Assembly: GCA_043810635.1 (NCBI GenBank) | Contig: JBDRNY010000028.1 | Span: 1 to 35,167, forward strand | From: Candidatus Micrarchaeota archaeon | Lineage (GTDB): Archaea > Micrarchaeota > Micrarchaeia > Anstonellales > Anstonellaceae | Direction of reading: 5' to 3' | DNA length: 35,167 nt | In this document: positions 2,282-34,015 of the stretch, in pieces | Position numbering within the stretch: the stretch's first letter is position 1 | Layout: each line of letters starts with the position of its first letter | Program-made: the position numbers and the translations under genes | The notes under the pieces: model-generated | What the model saw: only the letters and a program-made list of their open reading frames with translations | Database searches by the model: none | What the model was told of the DNA's origin: nothing

Positions 2282-2339
2282 GAATATATTTAAACATTCA
2301 ATAAATGTGGATAACATGGCAAAAAGAAAAAATAACTTT

Positions 2340-2394
2340 TTGCCAGACTTTGCCGGAAATGCCCGGTAAAATTTGGAGGCAAAGCTGATGGTAA
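2340..2394 (+). promoter_or_regulatory. Family D start-codon-covering hairpin, copy 1 (uORF 2316-2369 MAKRKNNFLPDFAGNAR runs into it)
   Basis: TTGCCA-GA-CTTTGCC ... GGCAAAG-CT-GA-TGGTAA; homologous to the hairpin at 8353-8403. Confidence 0.7.
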
Positions 2395-2927
2395 CAAGAA
2401 AAAGGCGAAAAGCGGGAAGGAAGGCGGGAAAAGCGACAAAGGCGCGTGTAAAAAAAATAAAGCGGGCAAAAAAAGGCGGACAAAAATTGAAAAAGGCGAA
2501 AAAAACAAAGGCGGGAAGGAAAATTAGAGCAAAAAAAATATTGAAAGAGATGCCTGCTTCGGAAGAGAAAAAAATAATTTACAGAAATACTGCAAGATTT
2601 TATTCACTGCCTGTGCAATTAAACCTTGTAATAAACGGCACGCCGTTCCACCTCATAACCCATCCGTTTGTAAGGTTTCATGCAGTGCAATCCACAATTA
2701 TAGGGTGGAAATTTTCAATTACATATTCATTGCTGATAATTTTCTCATTATTGAATATATTTTTGTTTAAGGGAGTTTATTTGGAATGGCTGGTATTGCT
2801 GTTCGCTGCCGCTTTAATTGTGCATTCCCTTATTTCAATTTTTCTTATCAACAAAACTGAAAAAGGAAAAGTGGTTGCGCTGCCGATAATGGGCAGGATG
2901 GCAAGAAGGATTGCAATGGTGGGCTGA
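2388..2927 (+). CDS. DUF4870/Tic20-like membrane protein with Lys/Arg-rich N-terminus
   Basis: FVRFHAVQS motif, hydrophobic helices, C-terminal LPIMG; SD GGAGG; stop overlaps the eno start (TGATG). Confidence 0.7.
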   Translation: MVTRKRRKAGRKAGKATKARVKKIKRAKKGGQKLKKAKKTKAGRKIRAKKILKEMPASEEKKIIYRNTARFYSLPVQLNLVINGTPFHLITHPFVRFHAVQSTIIGWKFSITYSLLIIFSLLNIFLFKGVYLEWLVLLFAAALIVHSLISIFLINKTEKGKVVALPIMGRMARRIAMVG

Positions 2928-4196
2928 TGCCGAAAATAAAATCAATTTACGGGAGGCAGGTGCTGGACAGCAGGGGAAACCCTACAGTGCAGGCAATTGT
3001 TCAATTAGATAATGGAATTTGTGCAAGTGCGATTGCGCCCAGCGGGGCGTCTACAGGAAGATTGGAAGCAGTTGAATTAAGGGATGGCGGAAAAGAGTTT
3101 GAAGGGAAAGGAGTAGGCAGGGCCGTGAATAATATTAATACTGCAATTGCAAGGGCAGTTAAGGGGATGGATGCCGGAGAGTATGAAAAAATTGATGCAA
3201 AAATGTGTGAAATAGACGGCACTGCGAATAAGGCGAAATTAGGGGCAAATGCAACAACTGCAGTGTCAATGGCTGTATTAAGGGCTGCGGCAGCTGCAAA
3301 GGGGATGCCGATATATGAATTTATGGAGGGAAATGTGCTTCCGATTCCGTTTATGAATGTAATTAACGGGGGAAAGCATGCGGGCAGCGGGCTGGCTGTG
3401 CAGGAATTTATGCTTGCGCCTGTTGGATTTAAGAATTTTTCAGATGCCATGCGTGCCGGGGTGGAAGTTTATCATATACTTAAGGAAATTATTAAGAAAA
3501 GATATGGAAGCGGAGGAACAAATGTCGGGGATGAGGGGGGATTCGCCCCCATGGTGGAAGAAACCGGGGATGCGTTGCAATTATTGGAAGACGGAATTGA
3601 TGAAGCGGGGTATGGAAAAAAAGTTTTGCTTGCATCAGATGCTGCGGCAAGCGAATTTTATAATGAAAAATCTGAAAGATATTCTATTGACGGGCAGGAA
3701 TTGGAAGGGGATGAATTAATTGATTATTGGAAAAGCATTGCAGAGCAGTATCCGATAATAAGCTTGGAAGACCCGTTTGAAGAAAAAGATTTTTATCATT
3801 TTGCAAAATTGAGGGGGGAAATTGGAAAGAGGTGCCAAATTGTCGGGGATGATTTAACTGTTACAAATTTGAAAATGGTTAAAAAAGCAAAAAAAAGAGA
3901 GGGCAATTAATGCATTGCTTTTGAAAGTAAATCAAATTGGCACTGTAAGCGAAGCTGTTGAAGCGGCAGAATATTGTTTTGCCCATAAAATGGGCGTAAT
4001 GGTAAGCCATCGTTCGGGAGAAACCGAAGATACTACTATTGCGGATTTGGCTGTTGGATTGAATTGCGGGCAGATTAAAACAGGCGCGCCTGCAAGAGGG
4101 GAAAGAACTGCTAAATACAATAGATTGACTGCAATTGAAGAGGAATTGGGAAAAAAGGCAAAATATTTGGGGGAGAAAGCATTAGTCAGGTATTGA
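2927..4196 (+). CDS. eno: Enolase, split by a +1 frameshift in the A8 run at 3889-3896
   Basis: [30 protein letters not shown] in ORF 2927-3910; [26 protein letters not shown] in the next frame; deleting one A joins them. Confidence 0.93.
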
Positions 4197-4463
4197 TTTA
4201 TTTTCTTTTTTTGGAAAATGGTTTTTGAAAAAATCTTTTATAGGGTGCTTTTTCTCTTTATTTTGGGTGGAATTTTCGGATTGCTCAGAATTTTCAGGGA
4301 TAATACGCCTGATGAAGACGTTATTTTCTTTTTCATCATAAGTGACTGTGACACTAAACCCTTCCTTTCTAATAAGATTGACTGCTCTCATTATTCTTTT
4401 TCTTACTTTTCGGTCGACAACTTCCATCTTAGGGATATCTGAAAATTTCTTCATGCAACCCAC
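4182..4463 (-). CDS. Small hypothetical protein
   Basis: 93-aa ORF 6 nt downstream of the preceding minus-strand gene; fills the gap and overlaps the eno 3' end by 15 nt. Confidence 0.55.
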
Positions 4464-4469
4464 TTTTTC

Positions 4470-5135
4470 CTAATCAATATTTTTCTCAACCCAGCTTTGG
4501 GTTTTGAATCCGGAAGCAGTGTAATTTGAGTTTATTACAATGCTTGGAAAGGAATTTACTTCATATTTCATCATAAGCGCATCAACAATCGCGCTTCCAA
4601 GCTCTCCGTCAAAAGAGTAGATTCTTACATTTTCGCCAAGCTTTTTCTTTAATTGTGAAAGCTCTTCCCCCTGCTGGGCGCAGTCATCGCATTGTTTGTT
4701 CGAATAAAAGTAAAGTATGGTGGAATAGTTTGCACCGCATGTACCCCTCACTTTTTGGGAAAGAAGGAAAGTGTTTGCCTCAAGCATAAAATATTTTTTC
4801 TTAAGTTCAACATCTTCAACTCCCCTCTTTTCCTCAAGATAAGATATTTTGCTTCCCAATTCTTCGGTTCGGATGTCTAATTTTGACAATTCATCCCTGT
4901 ATACGGGGCAGAAGGCGGGGGAATCCTCTTCAAGAAGGTAGAGAAGCTCGATGGAATTTATGTCAGCACTCACTTCATCTATTCCCGAAGAAAGCCCTGT
5001 AATGCTTGCCTGCTCAATCATTTTTCCGATATAAATTCCTGATATGAAAATAATCGTGCTGATAAACAGTGCCGCAAGGTAGAGGGAAAGGCTTATTCTC
5101 CTCTGGGTGGGGCGGGCATTATCCAAAATTATCAC
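4470..5135 (-). CDS. Membrane-anchored protein with C-terminal thioredoxin-like fold
   Basis: N-terminal TM helix; ILYFYS...CDDC and FPSIVIN (cis-Pro) motifs; start overlaps the GT2 stop. Confidence 0.75.
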   Translation of the reverse strand: MIILDNARPTQRRISLSLYLAALFISTIIFISGIYIGKMIEQASITGLSSGIDEVSADINSIELLYLLEEDSPAFCPVYRDELSKLDIRTEELGSKISYLEEKRGVEDVELKKKYFMLEANTFLLSQKVRGTCGANYSTILYFYSNKQCDDCAQQGEELSQLKKKLGENVRIYSFDGELGSAIVDALMMKYEVNSFPSIVINSNYTASGFKTQSWVEKNID

Positions 5136-6337
5136 CAGCTGAATTTTCCTCCGCTTTTTATTTCATTATATGCGGCGGAAAACCAGAATATTGTTATTAA
5201 GACGGGATATAATAAAAGGTATAGCACTACGGAACGCAGGCTGAATTTGTCATGCGCAAACATTTTTTTCATTCCGAAGAAAAACCAGAAAAACAAAAAT
5301 CCTATCCAAACAATGATGAGTATGTGGATAAGATTCAGGTTTAGGAAAAGCAAATCCCATCCCCAGAATATTCCATATTCCCCGAATGTAATCATCCTGT
5401 AAGAAAGTATGGAGAGGGAGACAACAAGCATTATGTATCCGAGCATGGTGAAAGGCATTACAATAATTCCCAAATCCCCGTATTTTGGATTGATTAATCC
5501 AAGGTATTTTACAGCATTCCAAAAACCGCCCCTCTGCCACCTTGTTCTTTGCTTCATAAGCTCGAAAAAACTGCGGGGAATTTCAGTGTAGATGTCGCTG
5601 TCTGTTGTGCTGTTTATCAAATATCCGTGCTTTTGTATGCGCAGGGCGATTTCCTGGTCTTCAACAAGGCTTTTTGTATCAAAACCCCCCACTTCCAGCA
5701 ATACTTTTCTTCGGTATATGCTGAAAGGGCCGGGTGTCACTGTAACAGATTGGAGCATGTTCATTATTTTTCTTGAAAAAAGCGCAAACAAATATTCAAC
5801 CCTCTGCACATCTTCAAGAATATTTCTTGCTTTTCTTACTTTTACTGCAGAAGCTACTGCGGCGACTTTTTCCGAATCAAAATTTGCAAGAATGCGCCTC
5901 AAAGAGTAGGGGCTTACATATGAATCCGCGTCAAGGCATGCCACCATTTCCCCTTTTGCCCTTTGTATTGCAAAATTCAGGCTGTCTGCTTTCCCGCTGT
6001 TTTTCTTTCTTATCAATTTTATGCATTTGTGCTCTTTTGCAAGCTTTTGGGCTATTTTTGCAGTATCATCTTTTGAGCCGTCGTCAACAACAATTATTTC
6101 AAGCTTTTCTTTCGGATAATCCAGGGAAAGCACTGAATTCACGCATCCTTTTATATAATCCTCCTCGTTGTATGCAGGAATTATTATGCTTACAGTAGGG
6201 GTCCAGCCGGTAATTTCCCTCTTTTTCTCGTGGATATTGCCCATATTGCGCAAATATACAAGGGTAAAAAGCACTGCTACAAAAAGGCCTACGAATGCAA
6301 AGAAATATTCTACAAACCACAGCTGCATTAGAACCAC
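5132..6337 (-). CDS. Processive GT2 glycosyltransferase (PgaC/IcaA/cellulose-synthase-like)
   Basis: PAYNE, DDGS, DAD, ED and QRTRW (QxxRW) motifs; N- and C-terminal TM helices. Confidence 0.92.
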   Translation of the reverse strand: MVLMQLWFVEYFFAFVGLFVAVLFTLVYLRNMGNIHEKKREITGWTPTVSIIIPAYNEEDYIKGCVNSVLSLDYPKEKLEIIVVDDGSKDDTAKIAQKLAKEHKCIKLIRKKNSGKADSLNFAIQRAKGEMVACLDADSYVSPYSLRRILANFDSEKVAAVASAVKVRKARNILEDVQRVEYLFALFSRKIMNMLQSVTVTPGPFSIYRRKVLLEVGGFDTKSLVEDQEIALRIQKHGYLINSTTDSDIYTEIPRSFFELMKQRTRWQRGGFWNAVKYLGLINPKYGDLGIIVMPFTMLGYIMLVVSLSILSYRMITFGEYGIFWGWDLLFLNLNLIHILIIVWIGFLFFWFFFGMKKMFAHDKFSLRSVVLYLLLYPVLITIFWFSAAYNEIKSGGKFSW

Positions 6338-6433
6338 ATATTGCCAGAATAAATTATACGGGCATGTAATATAAAAATTTCAAAAACACGCTTTAAAAAC
6401 CTTTTAGAGGGGAAAAATGAAAAAGCAAGGCAG

Positions 6434-7387
6434 TTATTTTGCCTTAGATTCATCTTTTTTGGAAGAGGGTTTCTTTTCATCATGCTTGCTTATTTCATCC
6501 TTTTCTCCGGGGGGTTTTTCCCCCTGCTCTGCATCCGGCTTTTCCTCCTGCTTCGGCGCCTTTTTCTCGTGTTTTGGTTTTTTGGAAGGTTTTTCCTCTT
6601 TTTCTTCCTTTTCATCCTTTTTCTCGGATTCTTTTCCTTCCTCCTCCTTTTTCTTGCCCGCTTCCTTTTCATCCTTTTTCTCGGATTCTTCTTTTTCCTT
6701 CTCTTTTTCCACCTTTGCCTCTTCTTCTTTTATTTCCTCAACTTTTTTATCAGCCTCTTCGTCTTTTTTCTCCTCGTCGCTAAGCTTGGTTGCAAGCTCT
6801 TCAAATTCCTCAAATGTAAGCTTGAATTCGTCATAAGAAGAAACTTTTCCCCCTGTCATGGCAAGCTCGCGCGCAAGCAACCAGAATATTAATGAAAGCG
6901 AGCGCCTTCCTTTGTTGTTGCAGGGTATTGCCCAGTCAATAAACATTGTGAAATTGTCTGTATCGCACAAACCTACTGTCGGAATGCCCATCTTGCCGCA
7001 CTCAACTACTGCCTGCCTTTCCCCTTTCGGGTCGCTTACAAAAACAAGCTTTGGCTCGGTAAAGTCGTCTCTTGCAACGTTTGTGAATGTGCCGGGAATA
7101 AACCTTCCGCTCACTACTTTGCACCCTGTCAATTTTGCAAAAGCTTTTGCCGCCAAAGAAGAATAAGTTCTGCTTGCAATAATAACAATGTCGGAAGGCT
7201 CGTATTTTGAAAGCACCTTTCCTGCAAGCCTTATTCTTTCATCAACTTTCCTTAAATCCAATACATACAATCCATCATTCCTCATCCTGTAAATAAAGCG
7301 CGCCATGTCGATTGTGCGCAACTTTGTCCCGATATGAATACCGGTTTCCAAATACTTCTCTTGTTTTATCAACAATCCTTCAGCCAT
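6434..7387 (-). CDS. rps2: 30S ribosomal protein uS2 with ~110-aa K/E-rich C-terminal tail
   Basis: YLETGIHIGT, GRFIPGTFTN, LCDTDN, IPCNNKG; SD GGTGA. Confidence 0.96.
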   Translation of the reverse strand: MAEGLLIKQEKYLETGIHIGTKLRTIDMARFIYRMRNDGLYVLDLRKVDERIRLAGKVLSKYEPSDIVIIASRTYSSLAAKAFAKLTGCKVVSGRFIPGTFTNVARDDFTEPKLVFVSDPKGERQAVVECGKMGIPTVGLCDTDNFTMFIDWAIPCNNKGRRSLSLIFWLLARELAMTGGKVSSYDEFKLTFEEFEELATKLSDEEKKDEEADKKVEEIKEEEAKVEKEKEKEESEKKDEKEAGKKKEEEGKESEKKDEKEEKEEKPSKKPKHEKKAPKQEEKPDAEQGEKPPGEKDEISKHDEKKPSSKKDESKAK

Positions 7388-7472
7388 TTCATCACCTTTT
7401 GCAAGAGGTCCGCAGAAACACACGCATTATGCGAGGCCACTTCTTTCGGGCACACTTGCGTATTAACATAAA

Positions 7473-7622
7473 TTTTTCTTTTTTTTCTTTTTTTTCAAGG
7501 GGTTTTTTCTTTTTTTTTCTTTTGGGGGTGAAACCCCTACAAAGCCCTACGGGCTTTGGGGCCCCAAGACGCGAAGCATCTTGTAGGGCCTCAGACCCTT
7601 TTCTTTTCTAAAAAGAAAAGGG
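7473..7622. repeat. Composite degenerate family A element with nested family B double hairpin
   Basis: Mirror-like T tracts around CAAGGGG; GGGGT-GAA-ACCCC hairpin; B element 7535-7588; perfect CCCTTTTCTTTT/AAAAGAAAAGGG hairpin. Confidence 0.7.
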
Positions 7623-7632
7623 GATATGGGAA

Positions 7633-7924: not shown

Positions 7925-8362
7925 TTACCTGTACGATTTCTGGAATCTTGCGCGTGCTTTTGGCCCTTGGTATTTCTTAGGCTCAATGCGCCTTGAATCT
8001 TCTGCAACCAAAAACCTGTCGTGTTTGAGCATTTTTTCCTTTAATGAGGCGTCTCCTGAAAATTTGACAAGCGCGCGGGCGATTGCAAGCCTTGCAGCCT
8101 GCGCCTGCCCCATTGCCCCGCCGCCTTTTACATTGACATGTATATTTGCCTTTGAAGCAACTTCTTTTGCAAGATTAATAGGCTCGTAAATCAATTCCCG
8201 CATATATTTATTCGGAATTGCGTTTATGTTTATAGAATTTATCCTTACAATTCCTTTTCCGTTGCAAATGGATGCGCGGGCAGTGCTTTCCTTTCTTTTT
8301 CCCCTCGCAACTATTCCGGCTTTTTTTCTTGAAGTTTTTGAAGATTTTCTTTTTTTTGCCAT
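7925..8362 (-). CDS. rps9: 30S ribosomal protein uS9
   Basis: GKRKESTARA, VKGGGAMGQAQA, C-terminal GPKARARFQKSYR. Confidence 0.97.
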   Translation of the reverse strand: MAKKRKSSKTSRKKAGIVARGKRKESTARASICNGKGIVRINSININAIPNKYMRELIYEPINLAKEVASKANIHVNVKGGGAMGQAQAARLAIARALVKFSGDASLKEKMLKHDRFLVAEDSRRIEPKKYQGPKARARFQKSYR

Positions 8363-8427
8363 CAGCTTCGCCTCCATCTAATTTCGGCGAAGTCTGGCAA
8401 AAATGTTTTTGCTGTTTTTTTTGCCAT
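8353..8427 (-). promoter_or_regulatory. Family D hairpin copy 2 plus 21-aa uORF (8362-8427, MAKKTAKTFLPDFAEIRWRRS)
   Basis: TTTTTGCCA-GA-CTTCGCC ... GGCGAAG-CT-GA-TGGCAAAAA; uORF has SD GGTGG and its TGA overlaps the rps9 ATG. Confidence 0.7.
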
Positions 8428-9182: not shown

Positions 9183-9238
9183 ATCATTCACCGAATTTTT
9201 CATTTTTTTCTTTTTTCAGATCGTTTTTCTTTTTCCGA

Positions 9239-9350
9239 TTTTCTTTTCTTTTTCCCAAGGGTTTTTCTTTCATATTGTTTTTCTTTTTCCGTTTTCTTTT
9301 TCTTTTCCCGAGGGTTTTCTTTTTCTTTCCCAAAGAAAAAGAAAAGGCTC
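9239..9350. repeat. Family A element (full copy 9292-9350) plus tandem partial copy centred on CCCAAGGG (9254-9261)
   Basis: T4CT5CT4-CCCGAGGG-T4CT5CT3-CCC-A3GA5GA4-GGCTC; abuts the tRNA-Leu 3' end. Confidence 0.85.
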
Positions 9351-9435
9351 TGCAGGGGGAGGGATTTGAACCCACGAACCCCTAAGGGACCAGCCCCTCA
9401 AGCTGGCGCATTTGACCTGGCTTTGCGACCCCTGC
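9351..9435 (-). tRNA. tRNA-Leu(GAG)
   Basis: GCAGGGG/CCCCTGC acceptor, CCAGC-TT-GAG-GG-GCTGG, long variable arm, TTCAAAT. Confidence 0.95.
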
Positions 9436-9503
9436 ACGAACGTCAGTAAGTGCTGGGGGGCAGCGGCCCGTAAGGCCGATCGGACCCCTGCACCAACATC
9501 AGT
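9427..9503. repeat. 21-bp direct repeat of the tRNA-Leu 5' junction flanking a GC-rich hairpin
   Basis: gacccctgcacgaacgtcagt (9427-9447) vs gacccctgcaccaacatcagt (9483-9503), 19/21; CGGCC...GGCCG hairpin between. Confidence 0.75.
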
Positions 9504-10132: not shown

Positions 10133-10882
10133 CTATACTCTTCTTCCTCTGCGCCCGCCGGGGCGTTTTGTAGTGTCTGTAGGAACAGGAGTAACATCTT
10201 CAATTTTTCCTACCCGCACTCCCTGCCTTGCAACAGTTCGCACAACCGCCTGCGCTCCGGAGCCGGGTGTCTTTGTTCCGTGCCCGCCCGGTGCGCGTAT
10301 TCTTATATGCAACCCGGTTATGCCTCTTCCTTTTGCCTCATTAACCGCGCGTATTGTTGCCTGCATTGCAGCATAAGGCTTTCCCTCCTCCCTGTCTGAT
10401 TTTACAATCATTCCTCCTGAAGCTTTTGCAAGAGTTTCTGCGCCAGACAAGTCTGTTATTGTTATTATTGTGTCGTTTTTGGATGAATATACATTGCATA
10501 TAGCCCATTTTATCGGGCCCCGCATATAATCTCTGACAGGCCGGCCTCCTCTTTGAAATCTTCCGCCTCCTCTCGGAGGGGCAACTCCCCCGCTCGGCTT
10601 GTCACCTTCACCTTTTTTCTCTGGCTTGAATTCTTTTCCTTCTTCAGCCCTTGTATCTTTTACTTCATCTTTTGCCTCGGTCTTTGCATCTTTTTTTTCA
10701 TCTTTTTTTGCATCTTTTTTTTCAGTTCGCCCTTCTTCTTCTTTTGTATTTTTTTCAACGGGCTTGTGTTCTTCTTTTTTTTCATCTTTTTTTTCTGCCC
10801 GCACTTCCTTTTCGTTTGCTTTCTCGCCTTTCGCCTTTGCCTCGGTTTTTGCATCTTTCTTTTCTTCTTTTTTGTCATCCAT
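10133..10882 (-). CDS. rps11: 30S ribosomal protein uS11 with ~120-aa K/E-rich N-terminal extension
   Basis: [41 protein letters not shown]. Confidence 0.96.
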
Positions 10883-10896
10883 AAAAATCACCTAAT

Positions 10897-12175: not shown

Positions 12176-12236
12176 TCAATTCACCATAACACAAATTACT
12201 TTTTTTAATACAAAAATTTCGCCGGAGGTTTGAATT

Positions 12237-12372
12237 CGCCGGAGGTGGGATTTGAACCCACAAGCCCTAACGGGCACATGCTCCCTGTTTTTTCTTTTTA
12301 ATTAAATTTTTTCTTTTCAAAAAAGAAAAAATTATTCCAGGCATGCGCACTACCAGGTTATGCGACCCCGGC
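12237..12372 (-). tRNA. tRNA-Ser(GGA) with a 52-nt intron at position 37/38 (12283-12334)
   Basis: GCCGGGG/CTCCGGC acceptor, CATGC-CT-GGA-A [intron] A-GCATG, long variable arm GCCC-GTTA-GGGC, GTGGG-TTCAAAT-CCCAC. Confidence 0.92.
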
Positions 12373-13209
12373 ACGAACTTCAGTGAGTACTGCTTTTGGG
12401 AGGATTTTTTCATTTTCCACTCTCCCAATTGCTATTAAATCTCCCTCCTTATTTCGTAATTTTACTTCCGTGCCTTCCTTTAATTTTGCCTCATCATATG
12501 CCACACCGGACAGCGCCAGAGGCGCGCCGCGGCATACTGAATCTATGGCCTTATCCTTAATCATAATAGAAGGCAGTGTAAACATATCGTCGGCGGGCTT
12601 TATTAATCTTTTTATGAGGGAAGAGTCCCCTTTCCCTCGATAAATTGCCATTCCGTCCTGCAAATCTGAAAGAGAAATGAGCATTTTCTCATCGATATTG
12701 CCTATTGCAACTCTCCTCAATTCCAGCATTTTTCCTCCTTCAAATGCTTTCCCAACATCTTGGCATAAATTTCTTATATAAGTGCCTGCTTCAACCCTCG
12801 CCCGAAATAAAATATTTTTTCCGTCCATTTCAATTGCCTTAAACTCGTAAATTTCCCTTTTTCGCTTTCTTTTTGCAACTGCAGAATGGAGGGGGGGAAT
12901 TTGCTCTATTTTTCCTATAAATTTATTCATTTCTTTTTGCACAATTTCAATATTGGAAGGAGGATTTCTTATTCTCATTACTCCGACATAAGTTTTCTCT
13001 TTTCCAACAACAAACCTCAGCAATTTTGTTGCCTTGTTTATGCCAATTACCATCACGCCGGATACTTGGGGGTCTAGGGTGCCTGCATGCCCTGTTTTTC
13101 TCACCCCCAATAATTTCCTGACATAAGCAGTCACTTCATGGGAAGAAGGGCCCCTCGGCTTGTCTAGCAATATAAACCCCGCATTAAGCAAATTTTCAAC
13201 AGATTGCAT
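12358..13209 (-). CDS. cbf5: H/ACA RNA-guided pseudouridine synthase Cbf5 (TruB family)
   Basis: LDKPRGPSSHEV, GHAGTLDP (catalytic Asp), QIPP..SAV, AGTYIR, compact PUA domain. Confidence 0.95.
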   Translation of the reverse strand: MQSVENLLNAGFILLDKPRGPSSHEVTAYVRKLLGVRKTGHAGTLDPQVSGVMVIGINKATKLLRFVVGKEKTYVGVMRIRNPPSNIEIVQKEMNKFIGKIEQIPPLHSAVAKRKRKREIYEFKAIEMDGKNILFRARVEAGTYIRNLCQDVGKAFEGGKMLELRRVAIGNIDEKMLISLSDLQDGMAIYRGKGDSSLIKRLIKPADDMFTLPSIMIKDKAIDSVCRGAPLALSGVAYDEAKLKEGTEVKLRNKEGDLIAIGRVENEKILPKAVLTEVRAGVA

Positions 13210-18452: not shown

Positions 18453-18577
18453 AAATATACACCTCTTAAATATTATTTTTATTTTCCTTTTCTTCAGCAT
18501 AATTATTTTTTAATTATTATTTTTATTTTCTTCCGTTTCCGCATCATTAATTTTTTCTCGGCTTTATTCCCGTTTTT

Positions 18578-19318
18578 TTAATTTTTATTTTCTTTTTCGC
18601 CATCAATATTTTCCCCGCTTTTTGCATTATCATCTTTTATTTCACTTTTATTCTCGTTTTTTTCGCCAGTATTTTTTTCGGGCGGATTTTCGGATTTCTC
18701 ACCGTTATTTTTTTCTTTTCCGCCTTTCTCGCCGTTTTTTTCATCAGAATTTTTTTCGGTTTTGTTTCCGCTTTCTTTATTTTCGTTTTTTTCATCATTA
18801 TTTTTTCCAGATGCGGAAGCTGGGCTGAGGAATTTCTGTTTTACTTTAGTGTAGATTGTAGTTATTAAGTATATGCCAATGCCTGCAAGAATTACTGTAA
18901 TCCAAAACCATCCCACAGGTCCGAAGGTATCCCTCCAATTCGGAAAGTTTTCAAAATTTTGAATAAATATCGGAAGGGAGAAGGGGAGGGTTATTTCAAA
19001 TCCAACAAATGTATCTTTCAAAATAGGCATTATTATTGCCAAAGCGGGAATGATTATTATCAATGGTTTCATTTGGGAAAATTGGGTTGTGAGCATTTTC
19101 GGCATAAATTTTTCATATTTTCGGTTTACTTCCTCAACCCTTTTGGAATTGCCGGATTTTGATGCTTCGGAAAGCTCTTTTTGCAATGCTTTCATTTCTT
19201 TTTGCATTTCTTTTGCCTTGTTTCTGTCAACTAATTTATTCATAAGAAAGCGGGAAGCTAAGGAGTAGACTACTCCGATGGCGGCTACGATGTAAACAGT
19301 GTCAATTCCAAAATACAT
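18578..19318 (-). CDS. DUF106 (EMC3/TMCO1/Oxa1 superfamily) membrane protein with K/E/N-rich tail
   Basis: TM-coiled coil-MKP-TM...GWFW pattern; conserved position after adk. Confidence 0.87.
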   Translation of the reverse strand: MYFGIDTVYIVAAIGVVYSLASRFLMNKLVDRNKAKEMQKEMKALQKELSEASKSGNSKRVEEVNRKYEKFMPKMLTTQFSQMKPLIIIIPALAIIMPILKDTFVGFEITLPFSLPIFIQNFENFPNWRDTFGPVGWFWITVILAGIGIYLITTIYTKVKQKFLSPASASGKNNDEKNENKESGNKTEKNSDEKNGEKGGKEKNNGEKSENPPEKNTGEKNENKSEIKDDNAKSGENIDGEKENKN

Positions 19319-22052: not shown

Positions 22053-22108
22053 TTTTCTTTCTTTTTCCCGAGGGTTTTTCTTTCTTTTCTAAAGAAAGAA
22101 AAAGGCTC
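22053..22108. repeat. Family A element
   Basis: T4CT3CT5-CCCGAGGG-T5CT3CT4-CT-A3GA3GA5-GGCTC; perfect 14-nt mirror; overlaps the rpl30 stop. Confidence 0.88.
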
Positions 22109-22676
22109 ATATCATTCTTTTCAATAATTCATCAATTGATTCTCTAGGCCCCAAATCTCCCATTGGATAGCGCTTTTTCCTGTTTTTCCATCCTTTTCTG
22201 GGGGGGTGGAGCCGGAAATTTCTGTTTATGCCAACTTCCTTGGGGGATTTGCCTGAAAATAATTGGGATGCAATTTTTTCAATTTCATCTTCTTTTTTCA
22301 ACTCAGAAAGCTTCTTTTTTCCGATTTGCCCTCTTTTTGAAAGCAATTTTACAAGCATATCTTTGCTGATATTGCCCCATGTAACATAATCCTTGCATTC
22401 CAAAAGCATTCCGTTGTAAGAGGGGGATGTGTGGATTATTGTTGCCTGGTTGGAGCGTATTAAGTTGAGCATTTCAATAGTGTATTTTCTTTTGGGGTGG
22501 ATGCCGGTTATGCCCCTTACTCGCACTATTGCAATAACCGCCGGCTTGTGAGAAGCTTCTTTTATTTCATTTTCTGTTTTAGCCGGGCTTGCATTTTTTG
22601 CCGGGTTTTTGATTTTTTCATGCTTATTTCCGGAATTTTTTGCCGGTTTTTTTGCAATTTCTTTTTTCTTTTCCAT
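22107..22676 (-). CDS. rpl30: 50S ribosomal protein uL30
   Basis: AIVRVRG, GML..CKDYVTWG, FRLHPPRKG, GDLG.R. Confidence 0.95.
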   Translation of the reverse strand: MEKKKEIAKKPAKNSGNKHEKIKNPAKNASPAKTENEIKEASHKPAVIAIVRVRGITGIHPKRKYTIEMLNLIRSNQATIIHTSPSYNGMLLECKDYVTWGNISKDMLVKLLSKRGQIGKKKLSELKKEDEIEKIASQLFSGKSPKEVGINRNFRLHPPRKGWKNRKKRYPMGDLGPRESIDELLKRMI

Positions 22677-22774
22677 AAGTATCATCTTGTTTCTTTCTTT
22701 TCCCGAGGGTTTTCTTTCTTTTCAAAGAAAGAAAAGGCTCTTTTCCATAAGTATCATCTTGTTTCTTTCTTTTC
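22667..22774. repeat. Family A element (22690-22740) within an exact 36-bp direct repeat of the rpl30 start region
   Basis: tcttttccataagtatcatcttgtttctttcttttc at 22667-22702 and 22739-22774. Confidence 0.9.
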
Positions 22775-28515: not shown

Positions 28516-29006
28516 CATTTTTCCTCGTTTATTTCATCCTCCATTATTCTCTCTTCTTTTTTCGCCCTGTCTTGTTTTTTGTTTTCATCGGTTTTTTCGG
28601 ATTTTTTGTCATATTCTTTTCTTTCGGCTTTTCCTCCGTGTTTCCTCATATGGGCACGCTGGGCTTCGTCATGGGCTTTTACCTGCCCAGGCATAAGATG
28701 GCCTTCTCCTTTTTGTACTATTTCCGTGACTATCCATGCTTTTGTTTTGGATATTTTGCGGCATTCTGCTATTTCCACAACATCCCCAACTTGCGCGCTT
28801 ATTTCATCAGGGTTGTGGGCCGCTATTTTGGATATTTTGCGGGCATATCTTTTGTATTTTGGAACATATGTGACCATGTCCCTTTGCACAATAACAGTGC
28901 GCTTTGAGCGGTCTGATACAACCACTCCCTGCAATGTAAGCCCGCGGGTGGGCATTGTGGATACTCCTTTATTTTCTGCCATTAAATCAAACCCATTAAC
29001 ATTCAT
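28515..29006 (-). CDS. rps17: 30S ribosomal protein uS17 with charged C-terminal tail
   Basis: RG..LQGVVVS, PKYKRY, AHNP, GDVV.IAECRKISKTK; start could be 28982. Confidence 0.95.
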   Translation of the reverse strand: MNVNGFDLMAENKGVSTMPTRGLTLQGVVVSDRSKRTVIVQRDMVTYVPKYKRYARKISKIAAHNPDEISAQVGDVVEIAECRKISKTKAWIVTEIVQKGEGHLMPGQVKAHDEAQRAHMRKHGGKAERKEYDKKSEKTDENKKQDRAKKEERIMEDEINEEK

Positions 29007-29272
29007 TACTTCAGTTTCGCATACAACCTCTTGCTCCTTTCTTCAGGCCGCACCTGCGCAGCATTTAAATCCAATATTTTTTTGGAATTTGCTATTTGCG
29101 CTTTTGCACCTTTTTTGGGAACAACTTTTCTTTCATTTTTTTCTGTGAGCAATGTGACGGTGTTGAGTGTTTCGCGCACAATTTTCCCCTCAATTCCGAT
29201 ATTGTTCGGATTTGGGGAATTGGTTATGCGAACATTCAATCCAATCCATTCTTCAGCCATTTCAATATTCAT
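29006..29272 (-). CDS. rnp1: Ribonuclease P protein component 1 (Rpp29)
   Basis: EWIGL.V.I, GIEGKIVRET.N, VPK, RPEER; synteny. Confidence 0.92.
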   Translation of the reverse strand: MNIEMAEEWIGLNVRITNSPNPNNIGIEGKIVRETLNTVTLLTEKNERKVVPKKGAKAQIANSKKILDLNAAQVRPEERSKRLYAKLK

Positions 29273-29586
29273 CGCCTGCTCACTCCGGGCACCACAGTTA
29301 TTGAATCAGGAGCATAACCAAGCGATACCAGAAGGTTTTTCATTTTCTGCAGATGGTTTCCCTGCAAAACAACAATCCCTTCCTTCACCGTTCCCCCGCA
29401 GGCAAGCTTTTGCTTCAGCTTTTTTGCGGTTTCGGCAAGCTTGTCTTTGTCAAGCCCCTCAATAACGGTTACCAATTTCTTGAACCGTTTTCTTGTGGCA
29501 TATACCCTCAATCTCACATCTTCTTTTTCGATTGCGTCGGATATTATTTCCCTCATCAGTTCGTCCTTCGGAAATATGTTCCCCAC
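29269..29586 (-). CDS. Translation initiation factor aIF1 (SUI1 family)
   Basis: RFKK.VTVIEG, LKQKLACGGTVK, LQGNH; GTG start with SD GAGGTGA. Confidence 0.94.
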   Translation of the reverse strand: MGNIFPKDELMREIISDAIEKEDVRLRVYATRKRFKKLVTVIEGLDKDKLAETAKKLKQKLACGGTVKEGIVVLQGNHLQKMKNLLVSLGYAPDSITVVPGVSRR

Positions 29587-29595
29587 TTATTCACC

Positions 29596-29862
29596 TCATT
29601 TTTTTGCGTCCGCCTTCTTTGAAGGCGCCGCCCTCTTTATCTCTTCTTTCTCACCTTTCTTCAAATCCTCCCTTCTTGAAAGGATTGTGAGTATTCTTGC
29701 AATTGTCTTGCGGAGCTCGCGGATTCTTCCCGGGTTTTGGGAGCGGCCTCCGCCTGCAACCATCCCTTTTTCCGAATTGAGCTCTTTTCTTAATTCAAAG
29801 AGCTTTTGCTCCAAAGATTTTGAATCCATCTCATGAATTTCTCTTTTTCTTATTATTGCCAT
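29596..29862 (-). CDS. rpl29: 50S ribosomal protein uL29
   Basis: MAIIRKREI..M, NPGRIRELRKTIARILT. Confidence 0.95.
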   Translation of the reverse strand: MAIIRKREIHEMDSKSLEQKLFELRKELNSEKGMVAGGGRSQNPGRIRELRKTIARILTILSRREDLKKGEKEEIKRAAPSKKADAKK

Positions 29863-29882
29863 AAACATCATCATATAGCCAA

Positions 29883-30644
29883 CTATTTTTTCCTGTCCCT
29901 TCTGCCTCTCTTTCTTTCTTCTTTTTTCTTGTCATCGTCATCAGAGCCGCTTCCTGCAAATGAAATCGCTTTTCTGCTTCTTTGCGGCACGCCTGCCTGC
30001 TCCCCGTCGGTTATATCTGCTGCTTTTGAAATTACATTCGGCACTTCCACTTTGCTTACTTCTCCTTTGTCAGGGAAAATTGTGCCCGGCATTACAAGTC
30101 TTACCAATACTCCGATTGCCCCCGCCTTTGGATAGGCAGTAACATGGGATACGCGCACAAGGCGGGCAGGCTCTCCTGCTTTTGGAACATGACCCGCGGC
30201 AACGCGAAGAGCTTTTGCCCTTCCCCCTTTTGCTGCCAATTTTCCTGAAGCGATTATTTCCCCTCCCAAAGCTCCTGCAGACATAATATCCCGGAGGGAG
30301 GAGTGGAGTATGGCTCTGGGCTTTTTGCCCATTTCAATAAACCTGCAAACTTTTTTTGCAATAAGCCGCGGCTCTAATTCCGGCCTTTTGGATTCGGAAA
30401 CCGAAATCTGGGGATTTTCAATTTTGAAATTTTTTGCAATATTGTCTGTAAGCTCGCGTATTGTCCTTCCTTTCTTTCCAATAACCCTTCCCGGGTTTGT
30501 TACTTCCACACCTATTCTTGTAACCATGGGGGTGCGCTGGATGTCAACATGGGTAAATCCGGCTCTGTCCAACTCTTTTTCCAAATACTTGGATACCTGG
30601 TAGCGGATTATCGCCTCGTCAACAAATTTCTTTTCAACACCCAC
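29883..30644 (-). CDS. rps3: 30S ribosomal protein uS3
   Basis: EKKFV, RAGF, RTP, PGRVIGKKG, GALGGEI..SGKL. Confidence 0.96.
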   Translation of the reverse strand: MGVEKKFVDEAIIRYQVSKYLEKELDRAGFTHVDIQRTPMVTRIGVEVTNPGRVIGKKGRTIRELTDNIAKNFKIENPQISVSESKRPELEPRLIAKKVCRFIEMGKKPRAILHSSLRDIMSAGALGGEIIASGKLAAKGGRAKALRVAAGHVPKAGEPARLVRVSHVTAYPKAGAIGVLVRLVMPGTIFPDKGEVSKVEVPNVISKAADITDGEQAGVPQRSRKAISFAGSGSDDDDKKKEERKRGRRDRKK

Positions 30645-30665
30645 TTCAAAACACCTTCAATATCA

Positions 30666-31607
30666 TTAATTTGATTTTTTAGCTTTTCTTGAATTTTTCT
30701 GCTTTTTTAATATTTCGGACATTTTCGGCTTTTTTGTTTTTTCTTCCATTTTTGCATTATCAACTTTTTTCTTTTCTTCCTCTTTTTTTATTTCAACCTT
30801 CTTTGTTTCGGATTCGATTTTCGGCTTTTCCTCTTTTTTAACATCAACTTTTTTTGTTTCGGATTCGGCTTTCGGTTTTGCTGTTTCAATTTTCTTTTTT
30901 TCTTCTATTTTCTTTTCACCTAGCTCGGCTTTCGGCTTTTCCTCTTTTTTAACATCAACTTTTTTTGCTTCAATCGGCTTTGCAACCTGCTTTTCCTCTT
31001 CTTTTTTTACCACAACCGCTTTTGTTTCGGGAATGGCCGGTTTTGCTGCGGGTGTGGCTTGTGGTTTTGCTGTTGGAGTTGTTTCGGCTTTTTTTTCTGC
31101 GGGTGTTGGTTTTGCGATAGTTGGTTTTTTTGTTTCAGTTGGCTTTGCTTCTTTTTTCTCCCCTGTTTTCAATTCCCTTAGCACAATTTCAACAAATGCT
31201 GTTTCAAAATCCTGCCTGTTTCTTCTTCCTTTTGCAGCCATGCGCGGGTAAACCTCCTGCTTGTTTGCTGCAATATGAATAATTTTGCACTCCCCCATGC
31301 CTTTTGCCATTGCATTTGCATAAGCATTTTGCAATACATTAAGCACAATTTTCACGGATTTTACAGGCCAACCGCCTTTCTTTCCTCCAAATTCGCGAAG
31401 ATGCCCTCTCCTCTTATTATGCCTGAAATATCTGATAGGCCTTTTCTTTTCCAGTGCTTCTGAAAGAAATTGGATTGCCTTGTCTGCGCGCCTTCCCCTT
31501 ACATTTGCGCATACATTGCACAAATCCCGGTAGCTGGCATCCACTCGGTCAATTCGCGCGCGCGCCGTCATGGCATCTTTTTCTTTTGGCTGGTATCCAT
31601 ATGCCAT
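30666..31607 (-). CDS. rpl22: 50S ribosomal protein uL22 with ~165-aa P/A/K/E-rich C-terminal extension
   Basis: C..VRG, GWPVK, NA.ANA..KG, IIHIAA, R.A.GR, VEIVL.E. Confidence 0.94.
   Translation of the reverse strand: MAYGYQPKEKDAMTARARIDRVDASYRDLCNVCANVRGRRADKAIQFLSEALEKKRPIRYFRHNKRRGHLREFGGKKGGWPVKSVKIVLNVLQNAYANAMAKGMGECKIIHIAANKQEVYPRMAAKGRRNRQDFETAFVEIVLRELKTGEKKEAKPTETKKPTIAKPTPAEKKAETTPTAKPQATPAAKPAIPETKAVVVKKEEEKQVAKPIEAKKVDVKKEEKPKAELGEKKIEEKKKIETAKPKAESETKKVDVKKEEKPKIESETKKVEIKKEEEKKKVDNAKMEEKTKKPKMSEILKKQKNSRKAKKSN
30819..30967. repeat. 38-bp in-frame repeat in the uL22 tail (KKVDVKKEEKPK x2), period 111
   Basis: 30819-30856 equals 30930-30967. Confidence 0.85.
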
Positions 31608-31617
31608 AATTATTTCC

Positions 31618-32022
31618 CTACTTGAGCGGTATAAATTTGGAGCCTCTGGTTGCGCCTATGCCAGGGCCTGAGTGAAGCACTCTTCCTGTGCTGTGCGCAA
31701 AATCCCCTAATCTGTATCCTAATTTATCCACTGTTATTTGAATTTCCTTAAACACTTTTCCGTCATGCACTCCGAATTTCATTCCAAGCCAGGAAGGGAG
31801 TATTGGGGCGTCCCGCACATGGGTGCGGATTATTTTGTCTTTTTTTGCTTTTTTAGTTTCAATTGCTTTTTTGATTAATTTTTTGAGCTTGATATTTCTT
31901 CCTTCCATTGCCCTCTTTACCGCCCTTCTTGCGCGGCTGGTGAGAAGAGGAAGAGAATCCTCTAATGAAAGAGCTTCAAGCTCATTTTTTGACAAACCCC
32001 TGTATTTATCTATGCGAACCAT
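31618..32022 (-). CDS. rps19: 30S ribosomal protein uS19
   Basis: YRG, SRARR, IRTHVRD, HSGPGIGATRGSKFIPLK. Confidence 0.97.
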   Translation of the reverse strand: MVRIDKYRGLSKNELEALSLEDSLPLLTSRARRAVKRAMEGRNIKLKKLIKKAIETKKAKKDKIIRTHVRDAPILPSWLGMKFGVHDGKVFKEIQITVDKLGYRLGDFAHSTGRVLHSGPGIGATRGSKFIPLK

Positions 32023-32032
32023 TTATTCACCT

Positions 32033-32767
32033 TTATACTGTCCTGGTTTTTTTCCTCCCTGTTGATTTTGCTGCTATATGCCCCACTTTTCTTCCGGGCG
32101 GTGCACCCCTGCTTGTGCAGGAGCTTGTCCCCTTGTGATGCTGTTTTCCTCCGTAAGGATGGGTGTATGCATTCATCTTCACTCCCCTTACTTTTGGCCA
32201 AAGCCTGTTTTGGGCATGCTTTTTGTAATGATTTGCTCCTGCTTTTAGAAGAGGCATTTCCAATCTTCCCCCTCCGGAAAGCACTCCAAGCTCTGCGCGG
32301 CAATTTCCTTGCAATTCCACCACTTTTTTTGAAGGCAGCTTTACATATATTTTTCCTTCTTCTTTTGACACAAGCACCCCGTATGCACCGGGTGCGCGGA
32401 CCATTTTTCCGCCGTCTCCGGGGAAAAATTCAATATTGCAAATATACATTCCTTCGGGAATATTTTCAAGAGGCAAAACACAGCCCCTCTCAACCGGCGC
32501 ATCTGCACCGCTAAATATTTCATCGCCAATTGCAATTCCTTCGGGCGCGGGCAGGTGCAATTCGTCGCCATTTGTAAATTTGATATGCATTAAAATTGTC
32601 TGATGTCCGGGGTCGTCAACAAATTCCATCACTTCTCCGCGCAATTTTCCTGATTTTTCTATCTCATCCATTCCTCTGAAGCTTATTTTTGCCTTGTAGC
32701 GGTGGGAGGGGGCTCTGTATGCATTGGAGCCTTTTCCCCTTCTTTGCTGTTTCAATAATTTGCCCAT
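32033..32767 (-). CDS. rpl2: 50S ribosomal protein uL2
   Basis: MGK...QRRGKG, PSHR, DPG, PGDGGK.VR, WPKVRG..MN...HPYGG. Confidence 0.97.
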   Translation of the reverse strand: MGKLLKQQRRGKGSNAYRAPSHRYKAKISFRGMDEIEKSGKLRGEVMEFVDDPGHQTILMHIKFTNGDELHLPAPEGIAIGDEIFSGADAPVERGCVLPLENIPEGMYICNIEFFPGDGGKMVRAPGAYGVLVSKEEGKIYVKLPSKKVVELQGNCRAELGVLSGGGRLEMPLLKAGANHYKKHAQNRLWPKVRGVKMNAYTHPYGGKQHHKGTSSCTSRGAPPGRKVGHIAAKSTGRKKTRTV

Positions 32768-32776
32768 TTTTTTCAC

Positions 32777-33061
32777 CTAAACAATCTTAAGCTGAGCCGC
32801 AATATCGTCAGCTTTTCCTTCTTTTAATTTCACATAAGCATGCTTCAATCCCTTCGGGGTGATTTTGGTATTAACCCTCGCCACTTTCACTTTAAACAAA
32901 TACTCAACTTCCTCTTTTATTATTTTTTTGTGTGCATTCGGATTTACAACAAATGTTAATTGGTTTGCAAATTCTATCATTGAAATTGCCTTTTCAGTTG
33001 TAATAGGGTAGAGGAGGATTTTCCCTTCCCCGACTTTTATTTCATCTTTCTTTTGATCCAT
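32777..33061 (-). CDS. rpl23: 50S ribosomal protein uL23
   Basis: PITTEKA, NQLTFVV, LFKVKV..VNT, K.AYVKL. Confidence 0.96.
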   Translation of the reverse strand: MDQKKDEIKVGEGKILLYPITTEKAISMIEFANQLTFVVNPNAHKKIIKEEVEYLFKVKVARVNTKITPKGLKHAYVKLKEGKADDIAAQLKIV

Positions 33062-33073
33062 AAATATCATCCG

Positions 33074-33865
33074 CTATTTCTTTGCTAACTCATCAAGCGC
33101 TTTTTTTGTATATGCCGCCAGCCTTCCTGCTTTTGCGCCGGGCGCCAAGTCAAGCACTTTCAATTCTTTTGCAGAAACCACATCAATTCCCGCAATATTT
33201 CTTGCGGCATGCGCAAATTTTGATTTTGCATCCTCAACTACAAGCAAAAGGGATTTGGGCCTTCTTTTTCCGCCCTTCCTTGTGCGCACTCCGCTTCTTT
33301 TCTTTGATTTCTTTCCCCTTTTCAAATCATCATTAATTCCGATTGCATTCAGCAATTTTTGCGCAATTTTTGTTTTTTCAATATTTTCGCATGTTTCATC
33401 AAATATTATCGGCAAACTGAATTTTGCAGGCAATTTGTGCCCGCGGGCAATTATATATTCAGAAGAAGCGGTTGCGGCAAGCGCAGAACGCAATGCCTTC
33501 ATATATTCTTTTTTGTTTATTTTTTCAATAATAATTTTCTCAACTTTCGGGGGGTGCGCCCTTCTTCCTTTAACAGAAGAGGGTATCCTCCTTACTTTTC
33601 CAAACCTTCCTTTTGGAAGCACTTCCCTTGGAAGCATTGCAATTCCCTTGTTCTTTATTGAGCCATAGTCATCTTTTCTTCCCCTGTATTTTGCAGATGT
33701 TTGCATTCCGGCGCGCTTATACGGCGCTTTTGGCTGGTATTGCTTTGTCTGGTCTGAAATAGCCGCGCGCGCAATCAAACCAAGTCTTACAGGCTCTTCA
33801 AATAGGGAAGGGAGTGAAATTTCCCCGCTCTTTTTCCCGTCATTTGAATATACATCAGCTTTCAT
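33074..33865 (-). CDS. rpl4: 50S ribosomal protein uL4
   Basis: LP.LF.E.VR..LI.RA, AGMQTSA, GRRAHPP, KINKKE, LAPG...GRL. Confidence 0.96.
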   Translation of the reverse strand: MKADVYSNDGKKSGEISLPSLFEEPVRLGLIARAAISDQTKQYQPKAPYKRAGMQTSAKYRGRKDDYGSIKNKGIAMLPREVLPKGRFGKVRRIPSSVKGRRAHPPKVEKIIIEKINKKEYMKALRSALAATASSEYIIARGHKLPAKFSLPIIFDETCENIEKTKIAQKLLNAIGINDDLKRGKKSKKRSGVRTRKGGKRRPKSLLLVVEDAKSKFAHAARNIAGIDVVSAKELKVLDLAPGAKAGRLAAYTKKALDELAKK

Positions 33866-33878
33866 AAATATCATCTTA

Positions 33879-33987
33879 TTTCTTTCTTTTCCCGAGGGTT
33901 TTCTTTTCTTCCCTACAAATTGCCGAAGGCAATTTGGGGTCCCAAATCGCGAAGCGATTTGTAGGATCGTAAAGAAAGAAAAGGCTC
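33879..33987. repeat. Family A element with a family B double hairpin (33912-33965) in its loop, flanked by 14-bp direct repeat ctttcataaatatc
   Basis: T3CT3CT4-CCCGAGGG-T4CT4CT2-[B]-A3GA3GA4-GGCTC; repeats at 33860-33873 and 33987-34000. Confidence 0.88.
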
Positions 33988-34015
33988 TTTCATAAATATC
34001 GTCCATTATTTCTTC

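Follow-up and report, generated by a model that had tools for sequence, protein, structure and literature searches.

Structured inserts between duplicated gene starts on a contig of a Candidatus Micrarchaeota archaeon

Insertion accompanied by a long, variable duplication of the target was described by Nobusato et al. (2000), as told in Furuta et al. (2010; PMC2853133), an account that also gives duplications of 19–26 bp for IS1630. Other systems that bear on the present loci are the class II intrastrand triplex repeats of bacteria (PIT, BoxC and TMECO), which Holder et al. (2015; PMC4666352) connect with rearranged loci, the transposing tRNA introns of Thermoproteales (Fujishima et al. 2010, cited in PMC3239211) and the mobile translational-bypass element of phage T4 gene 60 (bioRxiv 10.1101/2022.08.31.505936). 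Here we examine contig JBDRNY010000028.1 (C28) of a Candidatus Micrarchaeota archaeon (assembly GCA_043810635.1), on which structured inserts lie between two copies of a gene start at five loci: rpl30, rpl4, rps9, a gene labelled 'DUF4870' and a tRNA-Leu gene. The window analysed is the entire contig of 35,167 nucleotides (nt); the genome, G000, comprises 1.11 Mb in 89 contigs and is 82% complete.

According to Pfam, the minus strand of the window carries the archaeal-type ribosomal-protein operons L3-L4-L23-L2 ... S5-L30-L15-SecY, and a second operon, S13-S4-S11-RpoD-tRNA-L18e-L13-S9-RpoN. Intron-bearing tRNAs are numerous in the genome (ARAGORN, Rfam). In a limited literature search of titles and abstract openings, we found neither the repeat families described below nor start-regenerating hairpin insertions in archaea.

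Duplicated gene starts and empty sites

An earlier note, made from the sequence of the window alone, had claimed five repeat pairs, and all are present, with periods of 72 (rpl30), 128 (rpl4), 65 (rps9), 72 (DUF4870) and 56 nt (tRNA-Leu). The comparison with a null model that it had proposed was made by finding the best flanking direct repeat at 1500 random genome sites, each match adding 1 and each mismatch subtracting 2; the 99th percentile lies at a score of 11. The exact 36-nt repeat at rpl30 (22667–22702 and 22739–22774) scores 36, reached by none of the random sites. The exact 14-nt repeat GATATTTATGAAAG at rpl4 (33987–34000 and 33859–33872; 16/17 identical when extended) scores 14, and the exact 13-nt repeat ATGGCAAAAAAAA at rps9 (8415–8427 and 8350–8362) scores 13, values attained by fractions of 0.004 and 0.005 of random sites, respectively. 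The two starts of the DUF4870 gene (2316 and 2388; 14/16 identical) lie below the percentile: their score of only 10 is reached by 0.04 of random sites, so this repeat, already called weak in the earlier note, is weak when taken alone. The 21-nt tRNA-Leu junction (9483–9503 and 9427–9447; 19/21 identical) scores 15 under the same rule by hand arithmetic.

It is most improbable that the exact repeats are metagenome-assembly artefacts at multi-copy elements. Such elements do break this assembly, as contigs C13 and C39 end within identical copies of one of the repeat families, but an assembler cannot create divergence, and the copies have diverged at rpl4, at DUF4870, at tRNA-Leu, on contig C5 and at a tRNA-Thr gene.

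The inserts comprise members of two or more repeat families that are unrelated, here type 1 (rpl30, rpl4) and type 2 (rps9, DUF4870), and one single-copy insert (tRNA-Leu); the single mechanism put forward in the earlier note is not supported as it stands. In type 2 loci, U denotes the upstream copy of the gene start, M the 5′ arm of the element and D its 3′ arm. The features of the five loci are as follows.

22739–22774, minus strand: upstream repeat of rpl30, with a purine tract, the Shine–Dalgarno (SD)-like GATGAT and ATGGAAAAGA, lying about at the S5–L30 spacer and start of relatives
22690–22742, minus strand: type 1 element at rpl30, GAG-CC-T arm-loop-A arm-CC-CTC-GG with a mirror purine tail overlapping the downstream repeat; 68.8 bits
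22667–22702, minus strand: downstream repeat of rpl30; the ATG at 22685 starts the L30 open reading frame (ORF), 22107–22685
33987–34016, minus strand: upstream repeat of rpl4, made up of the diverged copy GGAAGAAATAATGGAC and of GATATTTATGAAAG; it includes ATG 34006, from which the frame stays open across the insert, and ATG 33993, which opens the upstream ORF
33879–33986, minus strand: type 1 element at rpl4, with a three-way-junction module nested in its loop
33859–33872, minus strand: downstream repeat of rpl4; ATG 33863–33865 starts L4 (MKADVYS...) and matches the start of relatives, ...GTGATATTTATGAAAGCTGATG
8415–8427, minus strand: upstream copy U of rps9 (ATGGCAAAAAAAA), behind the ancestral SD TAGGTGGT
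8353–8402, minus strand: type 2 element at rps9, made of arm M TTTTGCCA, GA, an inner hairpin with GGAGG, CTGA and arm D TGGCAAAA; 70.6 bits
2316–2331, plus strand: upstream copy U of the DUF4870-labelled gene, 21 nt past a TATA-like ATTTAAA, with the same spacing in relative G003
2338–2397, plus strand: type 2 element at the DUF4870-labelled gene; working ATG 2388–2390, ORF to 2927; 62.1 bits
9427–9503, minus strand: 5′ region of tRNA-Leu, with the upstream copy (9483–9503), a GC-rich 35-nt insert (9448–9482) and the working copy (9427–9447) running into the tRNA (9350–9436)

Comparison with related genomes places the upstream copies at the ancestral starts. At the S5–L30 junction the hairpin is absent in 11 of 11 relatives; three congeners with a readable junction have a spacer of 22–26 nt, two of them with a GTGAT-n4-ATG start. 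The rpl4 insert is missing from the L3–L4 junction of all nine relatives, and G007 reads ...AAGCAGTGATATTTATGAAAGCTGATG, the very sequence that is split in G000. Between L13 and S9, a single ATG and no insert are found in 8/8 relatives, six of which show a TAGGTGAT-like sequence followed by ATGGCA; the upstream rps9 copy in G000 occupies the exact place of this ATGGCA start. For the DUF4870 gene, G003 shares the ATTTAAA box, followed after 21 nt by a single ATGGCAAAAGC and no insert; this comparison rests on G003, as the sequences of G001 and G002 are not clearly readable. In four congeners, tRNA-Leu begins 8–50 nt after the rpoD stop and the upstream partial copy is absent. The alignment with close genomes that the earlier note had asked for shows empty sites, as single starts without insert, in the readable relatives, for DUF4870 in G003; its proposal that the start is regenerated by duplication agrees with an upstream copy at the sole start position of relatives and a downstream copy that opens the intact gene. 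The five loci are insertions gained in this species. They are probably recent and species-specific, each lying a few bases or codons inside the gene 5′ end. A 33-nt stretch of the rpl30 junction gave no matches in metagenomes, and an S9-based search for related loci returned one distant locus only.

At all four protein genes the upstream start opens a short upstream ORF (uORF) that stops in or at the end of the insert, as had been claimed. The rpl30 uORF (MILMEKSLFFL*) stops in the hairpin loop, and that of rpl4 (MKEPFLSL...GNL*) within the hairpin insert. At rps9, 21 codons end at a TGA that lies 2 nt before, and overlaps, the working ATG (8360–8362) of arm D, and at the DUF4870 gene, 17 codons end in the loop, 21 nt before the working ATG. 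A correction concerns rpl4, where the ATG at 34006, further upstream, is in frame through the whole insert into L4 (ORF 33074–34006). Automatic gene callers will choose wrong starts at such loci, for example a 310-amino-acid 'L4' ORF or a 150-amino-acid 'S9' ORF. Compared with duplication, the alternative that the upstream rps9 sequence MAKKTAKT is ancestral in-frame coding sequence is the less parsimonious model, given that the N terminus of the downstream ORF is already as long as in relatives. The name DUF4870 is unconfirmed, since the product has no Pfam match at E up to 1.

At rpl30, the 36-nt repeat, 36-nt insert and 36-nt repeat have the geometry expected of off-target CRISPR-type spacer integration duplicating a repeat-length target, for which there is reportedly a published precedent. 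We consider the probability of this origin next to negligible: the insert is a member of a 27-copy family and not a random spacer, and the other loci have duplications of 9–65 nt.

The two repeat families

Both families were sought in 41 genomes with covariance models, R1 for type 1 and R2 for type 2. Rfam, whether at the gathering score or at E up to 1, returned three tRNAs only, and neither family is described there.

Type 1 elements are arranged as GAG-CC / T-rich arm / loop / A-rich arm / CC-CTC-GG / second A-rich arm, with a covarying basal helix (GAG/CTC, AGG/CCT, TAG/CTA). The second A-rich arm is a mirror image of the first and not its direct repeat: when the tail is compared with the T arm, the same-direction complement of that arm is the better fit in 46 of 55 distinct copies, the reverse complement in 3, and 6 are ties. 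At the level of primary sequence, this mirror tail is the signature of a class II intrastrand triplex motif. Pattern searches of G000 gave 11 true copies under a strict definition and 19 under a looser one, and R1 gave 27 matches there, 19, 1, 3 and 1 in four congeners, and up to 44 in other genera. Matches occur in 23 of the 41 genomes and are absent from the other 18, a patchy distribution that suggests proliferating elements.

The earlier note had the insertions targeting gene 5′ ends, which fits type 2 but not type 1, whose copies mostly occupy tRNA introns or directly follow tRNA 3′ ends, with no flanking repeats. In relatives, the start of nearly all copies lies immediately behind tRNA position 37, in a D-loop or immediately behind the 3′ end of the tRNA. 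The sequence CCTACAA-hairpin-TGGGxCCCCAA-hairpin-TTGTAGG is a third repeat module, a three-way junction with two UUCG-type hairpins, and is found in type 1 loops (including that at rpl4), in tRNA introns and in a tRNA-Pro trailer. Further features of this group are listed below.

22054–22110, minus strand: type 1 element between the L30 stop and the L15 start, without flanking duplication
9208–9352, minus strand: type 1 element adjoining the 3′ end of tRNA-Leu, with partial copies of its tail in tandem behind it; 78.6 bits
12237–12372, minus strand: intron-bearing tRNA whose intron holds a T-arm/A-arm hairpin, an in-window control for spliced inserts
7527–7632, minus strand: 3′ trailer of tRNA-Pro, holding a T/A hairpin together with the three-way-junction module that the rpl4 insert also contains
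33915–33975 and 7527–7590 (both minus strand, window); C5:494–596; C76:22204–22299; tRNA introns on C59 and C32: three-way-junction module

Flanking duplications accompany a minority of type 1 copies. Four of 17 in G000 have a flanking repeat scoring at least 13, against a fraction of 0.005 at random sites. Apart from the window, the element at C13:5773 (score 13) repeats 17/19 nt of a tRNA-Thr 5′ end and is followed by the intact tRNA, and that at C36:7202 is flanked by a repeat of 59 nt exact by script (score 59), or 65 nt by reading, of the 5′ part of a candidate C/D-box RNA gene. A copy on C5 is flanked by a diverged repeat of the SD and seven codons of an unnamed gene (MKAVYEN vs MKIVYEC), and one on C44 by 11 nt of a tRNA-Trp T-loop (score 11, equal to the 99th percentile of the null model); the remaining 11 copies examined show no flanking repeat above the null. 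Two copies in relatives, in G001 and G016, have flanking repeats of 22 and 24 nt, both duplicating a tRNA 3′ end (by reading), and two further high scores among relatives are tandem arrays. Every type 1 copy found with a long, variable duplication cuts into a gene end, 5′ or 3′. The mutual likeness of the rpl4 and rpl30 repeats had raised the idea that they are borne by the element; this was dropped, as the likeness is mostly shared ribosome-binding context, GATGATAYTTATG also being the start context of L23 and S14.

The C36 locus (7130–7330, minus strand) deserves separate mention. Behind an ATTTAAA box it carries GTGATGA ... CTGA ... ATGATGA ... CTGA, putative C/D boxes that make it a candidate for a C/D-box small RNA gene; its first 65 nt are duplicated exactly around the type 1 element. 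In genome G034, intergenic type 1 copies have TATAA or TATAAG immediately behind their purine tail, and such a copy, with its T-rich arm after the preceding gene, could serve as a terminator-plus-promoter cassette.

The occurrence of type 1 in tRNA introns raises the question of whether the mRNA inserts are bulge-helix-bulge introns cut out by the tRNA splicing endonuclease. The element starts exactly at the 5′ splice site of many tRNA introns in G000 and relatives, the endonuclease gene is present, and removal of one 72-nt period at rpl30 would restore a single start. A strict search found no frame-restoring motif at any locus, a negative that is weak because the same search missed the window's own tRNA intron. 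Beyond that, a candidate motif in type 2 would put S9 out of frame, the direct repeats are unable to pair with each other, and splicing is unneeded, an SD and an ATG being supplied by the downstream copy itself. Taken together, these points leave splicing very unlikely.

Type 2 elements are unrelated to type 1 and have the layout TTTTGCCA-GA-[C-stem ... GGAGG ... stem-G]-CTGA-TGGCAAAA. In an alignment of six copies, 96.7% of cells are paired in two helices, with four pairs changed on both sides. R2 found 10 matches in G000 and at least one in 15 of the 41 genomes. The copies precede S9, the DUF4870 gene, L7Ae (Pfam-confirmed) and two unidentified ORFs, as well as L3 in G003 and an ORF in G001; the L3 start of G000 has none. 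Before L7Ae, the element is absent in four congeners, and G001, whose flank is 88% identical, offers a near-identical empty site, AGGTGAGCAATACATGGCAAAAACTTACG, whereas G000 has 68 nt (by count) inserted after ATGGCAAAA.

The distinctive property of type 2 is a covarying triple. The upstream copy U lies 5–56 nt before M, M is the reverse complement of U, and the working start in D also pairs with M, a covariation for which plain start duplication, as in the earlier note, is not a sufficient account. M has a perfect 8/8 Watson–Crick partner within 90 nt upstream in 17 of 20 copies, which together carry 12 distinct octamers; in a mismatched control, pairing M of one copy with the upstream sequence of a copy having a different M, this occurred in 3/334 cases. 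The repeat can exceed the M-paired part (13 nt at S9, 14/16 at DUF4870, 17/20 on C32). Five copies share the inner hairpin CTTGCCC...GGGCAAG yet carry five different guides (by reading).

Such pairing could also point to regulation. Type 2 might represent evolved translational-control leaders and not insertion scars, with M pairing either U, leaving the start free, or D, masking start and SD, and with the uORF passing ribosomes on by termination–reinitiation. The covariation of U, M and D as a triple fits this reading, as does the predicted fold at rps9, which buries the working AUG in an M:D helix, and the overlap of uORF stop and working ATG (TGATG) at rps9, at L3 of G003 and at PPIase of G001. 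In the second type 2 copy on C21, the nearer upstream ATG likewise gives a stop/start overlap (by reading). We nevertheless regard the reading as rather improbable: congeners do not retain the structure at the corresponding gene, the same module stands before unrelated genes, 7/20 copies lack an ATG in arm D, and the uORF peptides are not conserved, with two different frames used over M. Regulatory use may have been acquired secondarily after insertion.

Several narrower interpretations of type 2 were set aside. The K-turn consensus bound by L7Ae has tandem sheared G.A pairs beside a 3-nt bulge; the conserved GA opposite CTGA or AAGA would supply a tandem GA, but the bulge is 2 nt, not 3. A conserved L7Ae regulon was dropped, the copy before L7Ae being missing in four congeners. 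That the repeats begin at the transcript 5′ end fits C36:7202 and DUF4870 (about 21 nt after ATTTAAA), but neither L7Ae nor the intra-operon genes. Separately, the L7Ae 5′ leader of G000 (C21, about 42990–43095) and of all four congeners contains a conserved hairpin GCTGA...TCAGC followed by TATGAACC(G/T)ATGA, which we take to be a candidate for the L7Ae-binding leader known from other archaea.

The 35-nt insert at tRNA-Leu is single-copy in the genome, and its architecture resembles type 2. In the predicted fold, the upstream partial 5′-end copy pairs with the insert, and a second stretch of the insert pairs with the working 5′ end. The 12-nt leader of this tRNA, ACTGAnGTTnGT, also precedes the intron-bearing tRNA at 12372, where it forms the 3′ end of the cbf5 ORF.

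Possible origins and further observations

We consider it likely that non-autonomous, mobile, structure-forming repeats inserted at these loci and that the flanking duplication rebuilt the gene end; this confidence covers the descriptive core and neither of the mechanisms considered below. The upstream copy would stay at the ancestral position as a decoy start opening a short uORF, and the downstream copy would rebuild the intact start, allowing essential genes to survive the insertion. In type 2, the 5′ arm M is complementary to the first codons, and the 3′ side brings a GGAGG ribosome-binding site and abuts the working ATG. We take the downstream copy to be the working start because it alone is continuous with a conserved protein or tRNA. 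At rps9, where the uORF ends at TGATG, ribosomes may be handed on from it.

The duplication presumably arises during insertion, and only insertions whose duplication restores the gene end would be retained. As to mechanism, we tentatively prefer, with less than even confidence, template-switch copying from another element at a stalled replication fork, with re-entry upstream of the departure point; hairpin- or triplex-forming DNA would favour fork stalling. We favour a host process of this kind because duplications of variable length are common to three inserts that are unrelated to one another, because these lack terminal inverted repeats (as read for the L7Ae copy of type 2) and because no enzyme is linked to them.

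For type 2, the principal alternative draws on another group of elements. The hairpin elements IS200/IS605 and REP/RAYT carry, next to the foot of the hairpin, a guide that base-pairs with target sequence in the flank. By analogy, a single-stranded type 2 intermediate might find its target by pairing of M with a gene start, which we hold to be possible if doubtful. Unlikely in our estimate, though explicit enough to be stated, is that type 2 is a start-codon-homing element whose internal guide M, of 8–9 nt, recognises the opening codons of a gene by base pairing with single-stranded DNA and steers insertion to the position immediately behind these codons. Such an element would bring a ribosome-binding site and a start copy and would thereby be able to colonise essential genes, and its guide would be re-set for new targets faster than the hairpin core diverges. 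If true, type 2 would amount to a programmable system of insertion guided by base pairing, for which no linked transposase is known.

Some observations weigh against the explanation given here. Thirteen of the 17 type 1 copies in G000 lack a flanking repeat scoring at least 13, as do 41 of 43 copies in relatives once tandem arrays are set aside, and since most copies have none, duplication is not a constant by-product of insertion. A purine tract resembling the element tail sits in the upstream repeats of both rpl30 and rpl4 and is absent from relatives; a single insertion with target duplication leaves it unexplained. Template switching likewise leaves unexplained the perfect M:U complementarity across 12 octamers. 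No enzyme is linked to type 1 or type 2, and G000, at its 82% completeness, has no match to a reverse transcriptase (RVT_1), for which reason retroposition was rejected. Resident genes include one partial Y1 transposase gene (C44) and nine TnpB-like genes; the hairpins at resident IS605-type ends are GC-rich (CCCCACAGC..., CCCACGCC...), unlike types 1 and 2, and a derivation of type 2 from these IS605 copies was discarded on that dissimilarity. Finally, which starts are used is judged here from the DNA sequence.

Insertion with rebuilding of the gene end, if correct, offers selfish hairpin repeats a way into even the most essential and compact operons of a reduced genome while the gene survives, and the decoy starts and uORFs left behind can later become regulators. 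It would link insertions in genes for proteins, tRNAs and small RNAs with a module found in tRNA introns of Micrarchaeota-type archaea, which bears on intron spread in archaea, and the U/M/D covariation of type 2 gives a testable hint of base-pair-guided targeting.

Other features of the window and genome were recorded on the way. The intron-bearing tRNA is followed immediately by a second copy of some 22 nt of its 3′ end (12225–12260, minus strand; TTCAAA..CCTCCGGCGAA twice), and the cbf5 ORF extends 15 nt into the 5′ end of that tRNA (12358–12384, minus strand). The intact tRNA-Val(TAC) is preceded, at a distance of 28 nt, by a partial copy of its 5′ half that is itself broken by 52 nt of inserted sequence (C89:7415–7530, minus strand), and a similar fragment precedes tRNA-Val(CAC) on C32. 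The enolase gene is split into ORFs 2927–3910 and 3915–4196 by a frame change at a run of eight A (window 3880–3915, plus strand), with Pfam coverage of C-terminal domain positions 3–198 and 204–292; the split could reflect a sequencing error or a slippery site. Long lysine-rich, low-complexity extensions built from tandem repeats occur in S11, S2, L22 and the L34e region:

10650–10890, 6430–6760, 30730–31030 and 18460–18810, minus strand: lysine-rich extensions from tandem repeats of 12–57 nt

Comparison with described systems

Among described categories, the nearest is insertion with long, variable target duplication. As in the account of PMC2853133, the repeats here are far longer and more variable than ordinary transposon duplications and no mobility gene is linked; in both cases the two repeats align to one copy in a related genome, which here applies to all five loci and to L7Ae. 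The elements of that account are kilobase-sized restriction-modification genes in bacteria, with repeats of >30 bp required, whereas the present inserts are non-coding hairpins of 35–110 nt in an archaeon, with repeats of 9–65 nt at gene ends. Only rpl30 (36 nt) and C36:7202 (59 nt exact, 65 by reading) exceed 30 bp; the others are 9–29 nt.

Type 1 alone also matches the class II triplex repeats and mobile tRNA introns. It shares with the former a multi-copy nature and the order of a 5′ pyrimidine domain, a purine domain and a 3′ mirror purine domain (PMC4666352). TMECO is described as G/C-rich and bacterial, whereas type 1 is A/T-rich, archaeal and mainly found in tRNA introns and trailers, and its triplex is predicted only. 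Like the introns of Thermoproteales, as they are cited in PMC3239211, one module occupies canonical and non-canonical positions, and three tRNAs of G033 carry three identical copies; theirs are in tRNA genes, whereas here the module is also found at protein-gene starts with start duplication.

In type 2, the 8-nt arm M directly 5′ of the hairpin complements the sequence just upstream and the 3′ end repeats that sequence, as in the guides of IS200/IS605 and REP elements. The differences are a pairing of 8–9 nt, against 4–5 nt in those elements, a single conserved hairpin unlike the resident IS605 ends, and repeats that can exceed the guide (16–20 nt). A miniature inverted-repeat transposable element (MITE) was rejected on account of the lack of terminal inverted repeats in the L7Ae insert (by reading), the duplications of 9–65 nt and the unlikeness of resident IS605 ends to both families. 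The T4 gene 60 element, going by its preprint description, is likewise a short, structured mobile insert tolerated inside a coding region; ribosomes hop over it there, whereas here the downstream copy has its own start and a hop is unneeded.

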